Positions 38,296-62,362 of a stretch of 64,000 nucleotides of DNA are shown here, piece by piece. The position numbers were made by a program, and so were the translations under genes. Location of the stretch: the NCBI GenBank assembly GCA_951406725.2, contig OX597833.1:21514001-21578000 (forward strand). The letters run 5' to 3'. The number at the start of each line of letters is the position of its first letter. Positions within the stretch are counted from its first letter, which is position 1. The notes under the pieces are model-generated. The model was not told the origin of the DNA and did no database searches. It saw only the letters and a list, made by a program, of their open reading frames with translations. The DNA comes from Octopus vulgaris (taxonomy: Eukaryota).

Positions 38296-40005
38296 CTGTA
38301 AAACCTCGAGTATAGTCCACCCTTGAGTATAAGACGCAGGGGATTTTTAGAGGGGGGGGCTATACCTCTGAAAAACCTAAACCTTGTGTATAATACGCAC
38401 CCCTTCTCTAACTTGAGTCAAGGAGGTCTATATAAACTCCTTGGTTTGTAAAAATGTATACAGTAACGTCCTTTATTATTATTGTATGTATAACATTATG
38501 CAAACGTATAGCTTTTTTGTGCATTTTGTTTGCAGAAAATAAAGAAATAACAGTAATAGCGTCAGTGAAAAATAAATATTAAGTAAATTGCCTTTACATA
38601 TTTATCACTATCAGTTACAAAAGCAAAAGCAAACACATTTATTCAAATCCTTCAAATTCAACGTCACATTCAGCATCAAATAACTGTTCCATTTGTTCCT
38701 CCGTAAATATGTCAACATCATTGTAGTGCAAATCTCAGTCATCGTCAGATTCATAGTCAACATCAGAAGATTCACTTTCATTTATTTCATCTTTCCATAC
38801 AACGTCATCCTGAGTACTATCCAGTGCAGACGATATACAACATTTGATAAAACTTTTCACTATAATCTGGGGATCAAGTTCATTCCATGCATACACGATC
38901 CATTTGCATATCAAAGTCAGGTCGGGAGTGCGAACCCTTCTACCTTTAGTGAATGACTTTTTTTCCAGTCGACATCCATTCAGTCCATAAATCACGCAAT
39001 TTGTTTTTAATCGGTTTGTCAATAGAGACATCTAATGGCTGCAATATGGAGGTCATACCCCCTGGAATGATAGCAACATCTGTTGTTTTGTGACATTTTT
39101 TTTTTAAATGCTTTAGTTTATCTTCACTTCTGTGGCATCTAAAAGCATCTAGTACAAGCAAGCTGTTGTGCTGTTTAATTGCTCCACCAGGACGATTTCC
39201 CTATACAGTGTCAATCCAATCCCTAAATAACTCATCATCCATCCAGCCTTTTTGTTGATATCTAACATTAAACCCTGTTGGAAATTCCACGATTTTGGGT
39301 GCTGTTTTACTTTTGAATATTATTATATAAGGTTTAAGTTTGATACCGTCAGCCATACAAGCTAACATGACGGTAAAACGACTTTTTTCATGGCCCGTGG
39401 TTTTAATTGTAATTGACAATGTACCACTGAAATCTATTGTGCTATCTGCAGGCATATCAAAAGTTAATGGGGTCTGGTCCGCATTACCAATCAAGGACAA
39501 TGGGTAATCCTTTTCCCGTTGCATTTTAATAATAAATTTTTGAAAGTTCATTAGCTTCACTTCAATATCAGCTGGTAACTTTTGTGAAATGTGGGTTCGC
39601 CTCCTAATTGACAAGTCATGCCTTGACAGAAAGTTACTGGCCCAGCTACGTGATGCTTTAAATTCTGACTCATTAAGTTTTATCTTTTTAGCAATGAGTT
39701 TTGCCTGTAGCATCAAATGTACTGCATTAATGGCTATTCCACTAAGTCTTCTTTTCTCTACCCATTCAAGCAAAATTTTTTGAAGCTCAGGATGTTTGGC
39801 TTTTCCCCACTTCTTGCCTTCTTTATCTTTGGCATCTGTTTAATTTCACCTTTATTTCTTCTCCATAACCTGACATTGCTTTCGTCAACATCAAATTTTC
39901 TTCCGGCGGCCCTATTACCATGCTCTTCAGCATATGATGCAACTTCAAGTTTAAACATAGCTGAATAAGATCTACGAGGCATTTTATGGGCATGTAATGT
40001 ATAAA
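38296..40005 (-). mobile_element. pogo-superfamily DNA transposon, one end truncated
   Basis: TA followed by TIR CTGTAAAACCTCGAGTATA at 38296. No matching TIR is seen at the other end, where an unrelated repeat begins at about 40010. Confidence 0.85.
38639..39982 (-). pseudogene. Frameshifted pogo transposase (Brinker-type DBD, CENP-B HTH, DDE_1)
   Basis: The motifs RRSYSAMFKLEVASYAEEHGNRAAGRKF, FKASRSWASNFLSRH, NADQTPLTFD, LVLDAFRCH and GGMTSILQPLDVS are split across 4 ORFs, followed by an acidic tail ending FEGFE*. Confidence 0.88.
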
Positions 40006-54009: not shown

Positions 54010-54487
54010 TCCAATCAGGACTCACGACTTTAGCCAAAAAGAATAATCTCTAATTCGAGCCTACTCTAAGCTACTAAGAACGCGTGTGGCCACTTGAAGA
54101 TCCACCAACCACACGATATACTGGCGGTTGCTTGGGCGCGAAAGCTACTTTGTTATCCTCATTCCGTAAACGATGGCTTTTACTGGGTGGGGAGCTGAAC
54201 CATCATGGGGTACAGAGGATTCGCAATCTAGACTAGGGTCTGAAAGTTTACCACACCATAGTGGGTTACACCATGGTACCTCTGCTTTGTGGCAGAAGTA
54301 GGAAGAAAGAGTGAGAGAAAGTTGTGGTGAAAGAGTACAGCGGCGTTCACCACCACACCCCGCCGGAGCCTCGTGGAGTTTAGGTATTTTTGCTCAAATA
54401 AACACTCACAATGCCCGGTCTGGGAATCGAAACCTCGTTCTTACGACCGCGAGTCCGCTGCCCTAACCACTGGGCCACTGCGCCTTC
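54010..54487 (-). mobile_element. SINE family C, body type 3, second copy
   Basis: Colinear with 50925-51405. Confidence 0.8.
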
Positions 54488-54509
54488 ACTGTTGTTGTCG
54501 TTGTAGAGA

Positions 54510-55130
54510 CGGCTGAGAGCTGGCAGAACATTTAGCACGCCGGACAAAATGCATAACAGCATTTCGTCCGTCTTTACGTTCTGAGTTTAAATTCCGCCAA
54601 GATCGACTTTGCCTTTCATCCTTTTGGTATCGATCAAATAAGTACCAGTTGAGTAATGGGATCGATATAATCGATTTGTCCCTCCCGCAAAACTTCAGGT
54701 TTGTGTCTTTAGTAGAAAGGATTATTAAGGCGGCGAGCTGGCAGAATCGTTAGCACGCCGGGCGAAATGCTTTGCGGTATTTCGTCGGTCGCTACGTTCT
54801 GAGTTCAAATTCCGCCGAGGTCGACTTTGCCTTTCATCCTTTCGGGGTCGATAAATTAAGTACCAGTTACGCACTGGGGTCGATATAATCGACTTAATCC
54901 GTTTGTATGTCCTTGTTTGTCCTCTCTGTGTTTAGCCCCTTGTGGGCAGTAAAGAAATAAGTATTTCATCCGTCTTTACGTTATGAGTTCAAATTGCCCT
55001 GAGGTCGACTTTACCTTTCACCTTTTTGGAGTCGATAAAATAGGTTCCAACAGAGCGCTAGGACTGAAGCAATCAACTAGCTAGTTGTCTCCCCACAAAA
55101 TTTCAAGCTTCCTGCCTATAACAGTAAGTA
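54510..55130 (+). mobile_element. Cluster of SINE family A copies
   Basis: Three family A bodies in tandem. Confidence 0.78.
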
Positions 55131-57920: not shown

Positions 57921-58382
57921 TACAGGGTTATTAAAAACAAAAATAGCGTTGTAGTCTCATGATCTCCTTGAGTTATAGAGGGTTGCGACGGACTGTCAGA
58001 TGGGTGCAATGGAGTGACAGAAACGAAAGAGCATGCTTTTAATGATCATTTCTTAAGTATGTGTCGCAACGGTATCCGATTCTATTGAGCGGATCAACAA
58101 CATCACGATGATATGAGATCGTATTGGGTCCTGAGCGTGAAGCAGGATTTTCTTAATCGTTCGTTACTCCGCCTTCAACGAATGTGAGAAGTCATTGAAG
58201 ATCGTTCTTGAGAGGTTTAATAACTTCTTGAGAGGGGCTCAAAACTTTCTGAGTGAAGCCCCTTGTGGGCAGTAAAAGAAATATGGAACGAAAGAGCATC
58301 GGACTAAATGTGTTGCTGTATTTAGATTCAATTTTCTGCCAATCCTAAGTTCAAATCTTCAGTTTCGTCTTTCGTCTCATTA

Positions 58383-58738
58383 AAGGCGGCGAGCTGGCAG
58401 AATCGTTAGCACGCCGGGCGAAATACTTAGCGGTATTTCGTCTGCGGCTACGTTCTGAGTTCCAATTCCGCCGAGGTTTACTTTGCCTTTCATCCTTTCG
58501 GGGTCGATTAAATAAGTACCAGTTACGCACTGGGGTCGATGTAATCGACTCTATCCGTTTGTCTGTCCTTGTTTGTCCTCTCTGTGTTTGGCCCCTTGTG
58601 GGTTGTAAAGAAATAGGTATTTCGTCTGCCGCTACGTTCTGTGTTCAAATTCCGCTGAGGTCGACTTTGCCTTTCATCCTTTCGGGGTCGATTAAATAAG
58701 TACCAGTTACGCACTGGGGTCGATGTAATCGACTTAAC
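58383..58738 (+). mobile_element. Dimeric SINE family A
   Basis: Same AAAGAAATAGGTATTTCGTC junction as in 27574-27991. Confidence 0.82.
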
Positions 58739-58942
58739 TACTCCTGAGTAACAGTATAAAAACTGTACCTTCTGCTGAGCCATGTCATGCTAGTGTGACA
58801 AAGTAGGCTCATGAAATCAGTATCATCTCAAACTCAAATTCACAGCCTCCGCATCGAATCGTGGTTGGTGGAGAGAACATGCTGAGGTCTTCGTCCTGCA
58901 GAGAACTGAACATGTGTAATCCAATCCAGTCGATATAAAATA

Positions 58943-59128
58943 CCGTATTTATTCGTGTATATGTTGCAATATTTTCTACTTGATTTTAACTGAAAAGAAA
59001 AACTGGGGTTCAACTTATATATGGAGCAAAGGTAAAACTATGAAAGGGAAATTTTTTTTATCAAGATTTAACCTTAAATTAGGGGTGTGACTTATGCATG
59101 GGTGCGAGTTATACACGAGTAAATACGG
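58943..59128. mobile_element. pogo/Tc-type MITE
   Basis: TIRs CCGTATTTATTCGTGTATA / TATACACGAGTAAATACGG with a TA TSD on both sides. Confidence 0.82.
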
Positions 59129-59868
59129 TAAGTAACAGAAATTGGTTCAATCTACTGCAGTCTTTTTCCCCCACAAGGTTGTGATTGGGGTAGGGACAAA
59201 TAGGAGAAATCAATTTAAGCAAATCAGCGGGTAGCTAGCAATTGGTGGTAGTGGTGGCGCTGGTAGTTTTGTTATCCCTCAAATTCACTCTGATCGAGAA
59301 AAAAATCATTCAAGTCGTGATCTTTTTTTGTTTCTCTTTTCTAAGTGCGGAGAACCCAACATATGATCCAACATATTCTTTTCTAAGCCGGTAGGGTGTG
59401 ATTTAAAGAAAAATTGGCTGTTGTTTCTAGTAGGTGGAACGACCTTATATATGCTCCTTCGTTAGCTTGATGGGCACTGCTCTCTCTGCCAGGACTGTGA
59501 CATAGTTTCGATTTTTTTTTTGTAGCATATTTCACACACAAGTTAATCTCACCTTGGTAATATCTGTAACTTTTGTACAAAAGAAATAGGACTGGCGGCT
59601 CAACAGATTCACAAAAACTCGTATCCTTCGCTAAGTCTGTCAACAAACAGTTACAGCCAGAAAAATTACTATGTTGAATTTGAACTTAGAACTCTTTGTT
59701 TTATATATATATATATATATAAAGACCTAAGATTTATTATATATATGTGTGTGTGCGTGTGTGTTTGTACGTACATGTGTAGTTTTGTGTGTCTTAGACT
59801 CGTCCAAATTATATTAATAAAGTGATCCGCCAGAAATAATTACATTATATACGTTACGGATTAGCAAG

Positions 59869-59883
59869 GACTAAATTTCGCAG
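59869..59883 (+). promoter_or_regulatory. Candidate 3' splice acceptor upstream of the HORMA ORF
   Basis: GACTAAATTTCGCAG is a branch-point-like CTAA followed by TTTCGCAG, ending 24 nt before the ATG. The polypyrimidine tract is short. Confidence 0.35.
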
Positions 59884-59907
59884 ATTTGTTGCCGCGTTGG
59901 AATTAAC

Positions 59908-61071
59908 ATGGATGAACAGGCCCCTTGGTTTAAATTTGAGAACGCGAACAAAACCCTAGAAACCAAAAAATATCATCTTAACATTGAGGTTCCTGTCAAT
60001 CATGTTGGCGTTGTTTTATTGTCTGTCCTAGAAATGCTTTTGAATATGAGATCTGAAGGCAAACGCATCCTGTCTGAAAATACCGAGTATACTACATCAT
60101 TGAAAAAAGTGACTGAACAGAAAACAGTACCCCCTACTGCGTTTACCTACGAGGCAATTGCCAACCCCATTTTCTCGGCTGTTCTTAAATATATTGCCAA
60201 CGAGTTTAAAAGAAATATTCGGGACAGAAATGCCATCACTGAAGATAATATATATGTAAATTTCTATTTCCTCCTCCCTCACGAAGAAGTATTCGTTTGG
60301 GAAACTTGGGTTATTAAAGTGATTCTAAAACCTAAGACTCTTGCTGAAATTGAAGAGAATTTAAAAGAGTTGTCGAATTTGATCTTTCAACGCGTGTTAC
60401 CGCCTTTCCCGTTTACTTATCCACTTAAATCCTGCCCGAATACCTTTCAAACCAAACTTGATGAAGCTTGGCCATACTGTGTTTACTTTCGACAAGGCAA
60501 CAATGATCCTTCTGATCACTCTCTCACCTTGACTATAAACACTGAAAACGTGTATAAAGTCTTAAACATAGTCTTTGAGTGTATTCTATGTGTACGGACT
60601 GCAGCCAAGTTGATTCTTTCGGGTGAAAACGATTACAAATATGGCTCTAAATCTATTTGTAAAGAATATGTTCCGGATCTTGATATTTCTTATCACAGAA
60701 TACAATGTTCAGATCTCAAAAATTCATTAAAACTCCAGGCTGTCAACTGTCAAGTGTTTATAGAACTTCAGAAACCTTTATCGAAAGTTGTTACAGTTTT
60801 CATGAGTTTTTATCGGCTTCAAGAGACGGACAGTGGAAGTACAATTCGGAGTATCTGTGAAAAGTGGAAGATCGACTGTATAATCAAGGATTTAGAGAAC
60901 ATTACAACTAACATCAAAGACCAACTTGAGAAAGCGTTTAATTATATCGACCGCGCTAAATTTCCAAATTCGCTAAGAGTGCCCACAGATGTTAAATATG
61001 ACCAATTGCATAAACATTTTTTAACAACGCTAAACGCTTGTTCTCCGTACTTGTTCTATATTCATTTTTAG
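59908..61071 (+). CDS. Tandem double-HORMA, ATG101-like protein (387 aa, uninterrupted ORF)
   Basis: This is the only long, non-repetitive intact ORF in the window. Residues ~21-195 and ~203-387 each align by eye with ATG101 as I recall it. LNIEVPVNHVGVVLLSVLEMLLNMRSEGK and LTLTINTENVYKVLNIVFECILCVRTAAK match [35 protein letters not shown]..EFK and LDISYHRIQCSDL match IDFTYVRVSSEEL. VNFY and MSFY match LEFY. VWETWVIKV and ICEKWKID match PWEVWTVKV. TFQTKLDEAWPY and HFLTTLNACSPYLFYIHF match VFDTGLRDVQPYLYKISF. There is an in-frame TAA at 59872 upstream and AATAAA downstream. Confidence 0.85.
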   Translation: MDEQAPWFKFENANKTLETKKYHLNIEVPVNHVGVVLLSVLEMLLNMRSEGKRILSENTEYTTSLKKVTEQKTVPPTAFTYEAIANPIFSAVLKYIANEFKRNIRDRNAITEDNIYVNFYFLLPHEEVFVWETWVIKVILKPKTLAEIEENLKELSNLIFQRVLPPFPFTYPLKSCPNTFQTKLDEAWPYCVYFRQGNNDPSDHSLTLTINTENVYKVLNIVFECILCVRTAAKLILSGENDYKYGSKSICKEYVPDLDISYHRIQCSDLKNSLKLQAVNCQVFIELQKPLSKVVTVFMSFYRLQETDSGSTIRSICEKWKIDCIIKDLENITTNIKDQLEKAFNYIDRAKFPNSLRVPTDVKYDQLHKHFLTTLNACSPYLFYIHF

Positions 61072-61330
61072 ACATTTTCGAGGCGAAAAATAATTTTGAA
61101 ATGCTTCCTTCTGACTCGACTTCAAATTCAGGAAAAATGTTTTAGCCCTTTTTGTATAAAGATTAAAATTTTTAATTTTTAAAAGAAAATTTTTAAACAT
61201 TTTCTCGTTTAAAATATAAATGGCAGTGATTAAAATTTTTATTCTTCCGGTGATTTAAATCTATCCAATTATACCTCTGTAAGTACCCCAGCTCTTAAAT
61301 ATTATGCTAATCTAAAGCCAGCTCTTCACA

Positions 61331-61344
61331 AATAAATTAATAAA
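61331..61344 (+). promoter_or_regulatory. Tandem AATAAA polyadenylation signals of the HORMA gene
   Basis: AATAAA at 61331 and 61339, about 260 nt after the stop codon, followed by T-rich sequence. The AT-rich background makes chance matches possible. Confidence 0.45.
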
Positions 61345-61814
61345 TATATATTTATGATCGTCGTTTTTGTAACTTCATGTCCTACATCAGTATAACTATT
61401 AATTGGTAATATCCCTTTTACTATAACCGCATATCACATGTAACTACAGTGAAGCTCTTCAAATTCTAGGACTGTGTAGATTGTTCTATTAAGCCAAGGT
61501 AAGCAGACTGATCTTGTAACTGAAATTAGTCAAAGTGCTTCGAAGATGTCTCATTGCAGTGGGTATAATTTCTTCCACTAACATAAAATAACGAAACTAC
61601 AAATTTGTATATTCTATTGCCCAATCATAGCCTAACTTGTATTCATTTGGTTAAATGATTGGTTACGTACAAATGTTTGGACAAAATGCATTTCGAAACG
61701 TTTTAAACAGAGTTGCAAGTTCGGTTCTACTCCAAATCTGAAATTTTTTTTTTTCAAAATGGCAGAGGTTTTTCTGTCGAGAGTTTAGGTGTCTTGTGTT
61801 TGTGTGTATTGATA

Positions 61815-62073
61815 CCTAGAAAGTTACCCTCCCAGGCACAAGTCCGGGCAAGGTTGTTTATGGAAGACCAGCAGTCGCCTATGCATACCGGCCTCTCCTC
61901 TCCGTGCTACCAGTGTTATCCAAGGGAAAGGCAAAGGCTGATACAACTAGGCACCTGTGACATCGCAACTCATTTCTACAGCTGAGTGAACTGGAGCAAC
62001 GCGAAATAGTGTTTTGCTCAAGAACACAACACGCAGCTCGGTCCGGGATTCGAACTCACAACCTCACGATCGT
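61815..62073 (-). mobile_element. SINE family D, partial
   Basis: Reverse complement of about 26385-26645. Confidence 0.78.
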
Positions 62074-62139
62074 AATATATATAATTTCTCAATCTTCATC
62101 CAGGAGAGCTGAAATATCAGTCACAAGCATACTGTTGCA

Positions 62140-62362
62140 AACTCTAACTTTCGCAGGCCAGGAGGAGGTCAAAACAGAGTTCTTCGCTTTGAAACCAAAA
62201 GGTGTTTTACATTGATGGGATTAGAAAGCTTGTAAATAGATGGAAGAAAGTCATAGATAATCAGGGAAAGTACATTGATGATAAAATTTCAATTAAATAT
62301 AACATTTGACCACTTGTTTTCTTTATTCAAAATTCAGACAAAACTTATGGAATGACCTCAGA
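62140..62362 (+). mobile_element. Mariner 3' end remnant
   Basis: FFALKPK / FYIDGIRKLVNRWKKVIDNQGKYIDD followed by TIR-like CAAAACTTATGGAATGACCT. Confidence 0.65.

Follow-up and report, generated by a model that had tools for sequence, protein, structure and literature searches.

An intronless octopod gene predicted to encode two ATG101-type HORMA domains in a single chain

Positions 59908 to 61071 on the forward strand of a 64,000-nucleotide stretch of the Octopus vulgaris genome (the window: 21514001-21578000 of contig OX597833.1, here C20, in a 2.8-Gb assembly) hold an intronless open reading frame of 387 codons that runs from ATG to TAG with zero internal stops. For random 64-kb sequences of 36% GC, the longest frame free of stops had a mean length of 133 codons and a maximum of 202, and 0 of 100 trials reached 387. 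Other window ORFs of at least 100 aa are mostly microsatellite artefacts, together with one Tc5/DDE transposase fragment: a Tc5/pogo-type piece on the reverse strand at 39201-39713 that matches Pfam DDE_1 and HTH_Tnp_Tc5 above the cut-off. The frame had been described, in a sequence-only reading of this DNA, as intact within otherwise decayed repeat DNA. Its integrity stands and so do the repeats, those nearest the ORF being short microsatellites and interspersed repeats, but no tandem array (score at least 50) occurs between 56178 and 62362. Copies of abundant short interspersed repeats lie at 54370-55100, 58380-58800 and 61813-62060, where summed contig depth is very high in three of four runs. 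Some 5-6 kb past the window end is a 366-codon open frame (L014:5016-6116, reverse strand), which from its motifs we take to be a piece of a LINE reverse transcriptase.

The predicted protein is built of two diverged internal repeats, whose alignment covers 138 aa with 25% identity (E 2e-5). The first is an ATG101-like HORMA domain of about residues 20-195 (59965..60492), identified by Pfam, profile and fold comparison; the second, of about residues 204-387 (60517..61068), is likewise ATG101-like by fold comparison and by the Pfam stretch of its orthologues. Between them, the last strand of the first domain and the linker (residues 188-203; 60469..60516) have equal length in all three orthologues discussed below. 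Five pairs of motifs occur in the same order in both halves, and the linker itself reads RQGNNDPSD (aa 195-203).

The whole protein scores 27.4 bits against the Pfam ATG101 family (PF07855; gathering score 26.5), as compared with 33.6 bits for an orthologue from Logan and 40.8 bits for one from Argonauta, in two stretches in each case. A Pfam search half by half, the check proposed in the sequence-only reading, was partly informative: the octopus N-half alone scored 19.9 bits (E 7e-4), below the cut-off, and the octopus C-half alone gave no Pfam match. It is nonetheless the C-half that provides the best ATG101 stretch of both the Logan and the Argonauta proteins. When a profile of the three sequences was compared with the PDB all four matches were ATG101 chains, the best being human ATG101 (E 1e-5).

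Structure predictions point the same way. The N-half, modelled with AlphaFold2 (pLDDT 57, pTM 0.62) and compared with 48,161 representative chains, is closest to yeast ATG101 (Z 13.7, rmsd 3.1, 132 residues aligned) and human ATG101 (Z 13.0, rmsd 2.6, 140 aligned), followed by Mad2 (Z 8.3) and ATG13 (Z 5.0 and 4.5). The full-length model, from a three-sequence alignment, is weaker (pLDDT 54, pTM 0.48) and does not fix how the domains are arranged; its residues 196-387 match human ATG101 (5c50_A) at Z 11.3 with rmsd 4.7 over 143 aligned residues, against 8.2 for the next family, and the top nine matches of the C-half are all ATG101 chains. In the ESM Atlas, the model of residues 200-387 pairs with a cluster of ATG101 proteins (TM 0.77), and among clusters of at least 50 members none matched the whole tandem (best TM 0.41). 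A prediction of the complex between the N-half and the C-half scored 0.00 in two runs and gave no answer, the alignment having gone unused and the partner fold being uncertain. A Ufm1 match in Pfam (E 0.012, below the cut-off) and kinesin fold matches (Z at most 6.8) were treated as chance. Models of modest confidence and sequence thus agree, and the prediction that both halves are ATG101-type HORMA domains is confirmed at that level.

One of the earlier suggestions is not supported in its original form. The protein had been proposed to mimic the ATG13-ATG101 pair, which can be taken to mean one ATG13-like and one ATG101-like half. None of the tandem proteins has an ATG13 Pfam match (PF10033), the two halves resemble each other more than they do canonical ATG101, and because both are ATG101-like in profile and fold the tandem is not an ATG13-ATG101 fusion.

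Relative to human ATG101 (numbering from an alignment to 4WZG) several elements are missing. R32 is invariant in all eight aligned domains. The residues at positions 30-31, by contrast with the canonical L30/H31, are N-M, N-M, N-V, C-V, C-M and Y-F in the six tandem halves (in the octopus protein N46/M47 in the N-half and C228/V229 in the C-half), such that His31 is replaced by M, V or F in all six. None of the six halves has the W-x-F loop; in N-halves the β4-β5 loop is a short one, and in C-halves it is polar. The C-half stops at human residue 192-193, with neither the C-terminal helix nor Ser203 of the human protein, and the N-half reaches about human residue 198 before passing into the linker. 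On this evidence the tandem is without the parts that ATG101 uses for membrane docking. That it serves as a canonical ULK1-complex subunit is unlikely, because the WF finger, the C-terminal helix and the interface His are absent from both halves; with four defining features of canonical ATG101 failing, we do not annotate it as one.

Contigs from four runs of four studies, whose run type is guessed or unrecorded, begin within a few tens of bases of each other upstream of the ATG, at 59842, 59853, 59858 and 59865, and each contig aligns there out to its own terminal base. One run (X1) has a contig, 59842-61843, that contains the whole ORF in one piece; a second (X9) has contigs 59853-61325, also with the whole ORF, and 61361-61843, the break falling at a short repeat beside an AATAAA signal. 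Cover in a third (X6) amounts to 59865-60070 plus a 37-base piece. Depth over the ORF is 12.9 in X1, 203.6 in X9 and 7-8 in the fourth run (X7), and in two upstream bins (58912-59195 and 59480-59763) it is 0 in X1, X6 and X7 and 2-3 in X9, although lack of cover proves nothing. There is no upstream ATG in 59800-59907. A splice acceptor considered at about 59883 was dropped, since the four contigs are colinear through the site. The contig starts give a weak hint, from runs of guessed or unrecorded type, of transcription into an unspliced mRNA, its 5′ UTR some 45-65 nt long (putatively 59842..59907), and the signals and contig ends suggest a 3′ UTR at 61072..61843, with AATAAA at 61331 and 61339, whose longer form enters an interspersed repeat near 61813-61843. 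Among 24 sequencing-run rows listed, 13 hold the stretch, none recorded as RNA; 11 rows with the same label have a share of 0.00, which does not prove absence.

The genome retains a canonical ATG101 gene elsewhere, and the tandem is, as had been supposed, a divergent, lineage-restricted paralogue beside it. Seven exons with GT-AG borders were recovered on C15 (15187080-15162320, reverse strand), encoding 190 aa with no stop. The introns follow residues 10, 22, 36, 63, 96, 134 and 190, all GT-AG, which gives at least 7 introns and at least 8 coding exons, several of them very short (30, 37 and 41 nt); a search of about 82 kb did not reveal the last exon. Canonical octopus ATG101 keeps both F-H-R at positions 30-32 and the W-x-F finger, and the tandem halves are 17-22% identical to it.

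A second intronless gene, of 214 aa and a single ATG101-like domain, lies on the same contig as the tandem at a distance of about 14.8 Mb (C20:6739265-6739909, forward strand; Pfam 40.1 bits). It agrees at 213 of 214 residues with Octopus sinensis 'autophagy-related protein 101-like', and a relative in Logan is 76% identical. Like the tandem it is without the WF finger and H31, and its identity to the tandem halves is 14-18%. The residue at the position of human H26 is Glu in six of seven derived domains, this paralogue included, which is a hint of shared ancestry. It is possible that the single-domain protein is a sister of the tandem, or a partner for it.

A loose genome search returned one match each for the octopus and the Argonauta tandem proteins (the family search missed the tandem itself), and by profile there are no further tandem copies over the examined loci: only the three known ATG101-type genes matched. 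For ATG13 the only family match found in the genome is a large exon that covers much of the HORMA domain (C7 near 3569750; L020:1276-1845, reverse strand). This match was considered as an intronless partner paralogue and rejected, its AG and GT borders marking it as an internal exon. Three other HORMA-family matches, on C5 (L021), C26 (L022) and C3 (L024), are presumably HORMAD, REV7 and MAD2 exons, judging by their motifs; a fourth, on C3 (L023), is low-complexity DNA with stops and probably spurious.

Two orthologues share the two-domain layout. The unnamed Logan protein has 391 aa and is 61% identical to the octopus protein over its full length; Argonauta hians GAB1603255.1, a hypothetical protein, has 387 aa and is 38% identical. 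The layout, a total length of 387-391 aa and the length of the linker are thus constant in all three orthologue clusters. Further relatives of the tandem were absent from 1736 and 4823 candidates of 212-685 aa; among 1.84 billion representatives there are two tandem clusters, and 1181 candidates of 20-375 aa included two single-domain relatives. No squid, cuttlefish or nautilus is among the named relatives, in protein searches to which unannotated genomes are invisible.

The conservation of the frame is not that expected of neutral DNA. Of 1000 runs in which the ORF was evolved by simulated neutral substitution (without indels, and hence conservatively), 5 reached 80% identity with no stop in frame; at both 61% and 38% the number was 0 of 1000. 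Canonical ATG101 residues are over-represented in those columns that do not vary among the three orthologues, both in the N-half (19/57 against 20/118, p 0.02) and in the C-half (17/45 against 17/132, p 0.0007). Of the blocks scored, with limits set by the analyst, the 16-position linker block is best conserved (7/16 invariant), the β1-αA block of the N-half has 14/35 invariant positions, N46 and R48 included, and helix αC of the C-half is least conserved (3/23). Run X1 differs from the ORF at three sites, two synonymous and one non-synonymous, which are too few to use, and the contigs of run X7, labelled as another organism, span almost the whole ORF with about 9% DNA difference and four gaps. 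Comparison of the orthologues supports purifying constraint on a gene whose frame is intact.

How did such a gene arise? All seven canonical intron positions are intron-free in both tandem halves. That both halves and the single-domain paralogue span the parent's intron positions without introns implicates retroposition. No scar of it is evident: there is no A-run of at least 8 in 61072-62300 and one 11-mer flanking match, which may be chance, and for this reason wholesale intron loss has to be considered as an alternative. In a copy of great age, poly(A) and target-site remnants should have decayed. A search with one canonical exon turned up no younger processed copy. The halves resemble each other more than the parent in one direction of comparison: with a C-half profile, N-halves reach 28-46 bits and canonical ATG101 17.8, while with an N-half profile the C-halves reach 19-33 bits (best 33.5, others 19.7 and 19.1) and the canonical protein 19.3. 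In a domain tree the halves, on long branches, come together with support of 94/93 (not starred), with alternatives not rejected (p-AU 0.16), and at the same p-AU a common origin of tandem and single-domain paralogue is neither shown nor rejected. The halves have no DNA similarity beyond one 11-mer, and the duplication is accordingly old, neither recent nor artefactual. The tandem gene is best read as an old retrocopy that was internally duplicated, and the favoured, if unproven, order of events would be duplication of an already diverged copy.

Comparison with known systems places the protein close to ATG101 and apart from it. Each half has the open-type HORMA fold of ATG101 (human 4WZG, 5C50 and 5XUY; fission yeast 4YK8 chain A) with strands and helices in the same order, as well as the R32 equivalent, the FY and ExW motifs and the terminal PY-type strand, and the protein passes the Pfam cut-off. 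Canonical ATG101, in contrast, is a single HORMA domain of about 220 aa encoded by a gene with introns, whereas the tandem has two domains, is intronless and coexists with the canonical gene. The single-domain octopus paralogue and its O. sinensis counterpart resemble the tandem in being intronless, in the absence of WF and H31 and in Glu at the H26 position, but have one domain in 214 aa. As in the ATG13-ATG101 heterodimer two HORMA domains are held together; unlike it, the tandem is covalent, has two ATG101-type halves and is without the disordered tail of ATG13. The transient ATG101 homodimer also brings two ATG101 protomers into proximity (10.1101/2025.06.27.661946; PMC4034400), but the tandem differs from the human homodimer described there in being covalent and sequence-asymmetric and in being without the L/H pair and the C-terminal switch. 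Mad2, Rev7, HORMAD, p31comet and bacterial HORMA proteins share the fold (Z 5-8), with matches far weaker than those of ATG101, and their matched solved chains are single-HORMA. Closed HORMA conformers have a longer safety belt, of which there is no sign in the tandem: the chain ends at the β7 equivalent.

A conserved tandem-HORMA architecture is apparently undescribed in the literature searched, as the sequence-only reading had supposed. No description of a tandem HORMA protein was found, in a search that left most subscription papers and the supplements of genome papers outside, and the word 'tandem' does not occur in the accessible part of a HORMA review (PMC4657174). Among the matches read, 'two HORMA domains' means ATG13 plus ATG101. 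No fused form of ATG101 appears in the titles or abstract beginnings of the matches listed, nor do the listed papers on paralogues or molluscs mention ATG101; no literature was found on ATG101 in octopus, and the cephalopod matches listed are general papers on autophagy or starvation. The reviews consulted describe ATG101 as little beyond a single HORMA domain.

We suggest the following explanation, which we rate at a little under an even chance as a whole. In a lineage ancestral to Octopus and Argonauta, a spliced ATG101 mRNA would have undergone retroposition; the retrocopy would have lost its C-terminal helix, duplicated head to tail and fused by way of a short, fixed linker, to yield a single soluble chain with two open-type ATG101 HORMA domains. 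This chain would presumably no longer dock on membranes or pair with ATG13 in the usual way, and it is probably not a working subunit of the ULK1 complex, because canonical ATG101 has been retained for that job. Instead the halves may pack on each other, either face to face via the former His position, now hydrophobic, or, equally plausibly, edge to edge, with a β7-turn-β1 hairpin joining the two sheets. In a restricted tissue, such a packed pair could bind a new partner and serve constitutively as an adaptor for protein interaction. Retrogenes in general behave in a manner that would make germline the likeliest tissue. Two observations make the self-paired adaptor our preferred reading: a linker that is short, of fixed length and better conserved than any other block, and the change of the His to a hydrophobic residue. 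Poor conservation of αC in the C-half counts against a face-to-face intramolecular dimer; αC belongs to the canonical dimer face (PMC4657174). Among earlier readings of the locus that of a repurposed scaffold fits best.

A different role, unlikely in our estimation and yet deserving of weight, is that of a decoy or brake on the ULK1 complex, in which a remodelled interface would let one half go on binding ATG13 or canonical ATG101. The good conservation of the β1-αA block in the N-half would suit it, as would the presence in the genome of an ATG13 gene with its HORMA exon. Against this, both hot-spot positions are changed in the N-halves, identity to canonical ATG101 is low, and a decoy has no need of two domains. 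Competition for ATG13 had been among the first suggestions for this protein, and replacement of the His of the canonical dimer interface in all six halves weighs against it. Changing the L/H pair to Arg abolishes the binding of ATG13 as well as the homodimerisation of ATG101 (10.1101/2025.06.27.661946); the preprint numbers the pair L29/H30, and we infer its equivalence to L30/H31. A change of His to a hydrophobic residue differs from one to Arg, and some residual binding of ATG13 would be compatible with it.

It is also conceivable, if improbable, that the two domains are independent, like beads on a string, and make no fixed contact with each other, the protein linking two partners as a bivalent adaptor. 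Divergence of the halves to 17-24% identity, each with its own invariant residues, and the low pTM of the full-length model are in keeping with such a molecule, but a linker that is short, conserved and of fixed length would be unusual for a passive tether.

We hold it improbable as well that the tandem is an ATG101 homodimer locked by its covalent link and serving as a kinase-independent template, which would speed the conversion of canonical ATG101 and with it the assembly of ATG9, ATG13 and ATG101. ATG101 does form homodimers: fly Atg101 self-associates (PMC4034400), and in human the homodimer activates autocatalytically, in connection with a refolding of the C-terminus (10.1101/2025.06.27.661946). 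The tandem moreover has two ATG101-type domains and is without the switchable C-terminal element. But the L/H pair that the human homodimer needs is altered, αC of the C-half is poorly conserved, and halves that occupy each other's interface would leave none free to template. Finally, that the locus is a non-functional processed pseudogene or an assembly artefact, as its intronless state, high divergence and the want of a holding run recorded as RNA might suggest, is scarcely credible given intact orthologues at 61% and 38% identity, neutral runs of which none stayed stop-free at those distances, single contigs from two other studies that span the whole ORF, and halves without DNA similarity beyond the 11-mer.

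A bolder proposal, which we regard as doubtful, is that the tandem is a covalently trapped ATG101-ATG101 dimer, possibly the first single-chain tandem HORMA, used by octopods as a tissue-specific, kinase-independent switch (template or sink) on the ULK1 complex. If true, the tandem and its single-domain sister would constitute an octopod-specific regulatory layer on autophagy initiation, and the protein would offer a crystallisable snapshot of an otherwise transient homodimer.

HORMA signalling works by the pairing of two separate chains, and the self-paired adaptor that we favour would represent the same fold hard-wired into a pair and taken off its core autophagy job. The tandem may furthermore help to show how the transient ATG101 homodimer is arranged and what it does; of its geometry the preprint gives only a docking model based on cross-links (10.1101/2025.06.27.661946). 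The reach of the finding is limited by the narrow known distribution of the gene. A small octopod-specific ATG101 family, comprising the canonical gene, a single-domain copy and a tandem copy, joins the genomic novelties of cephalopods.
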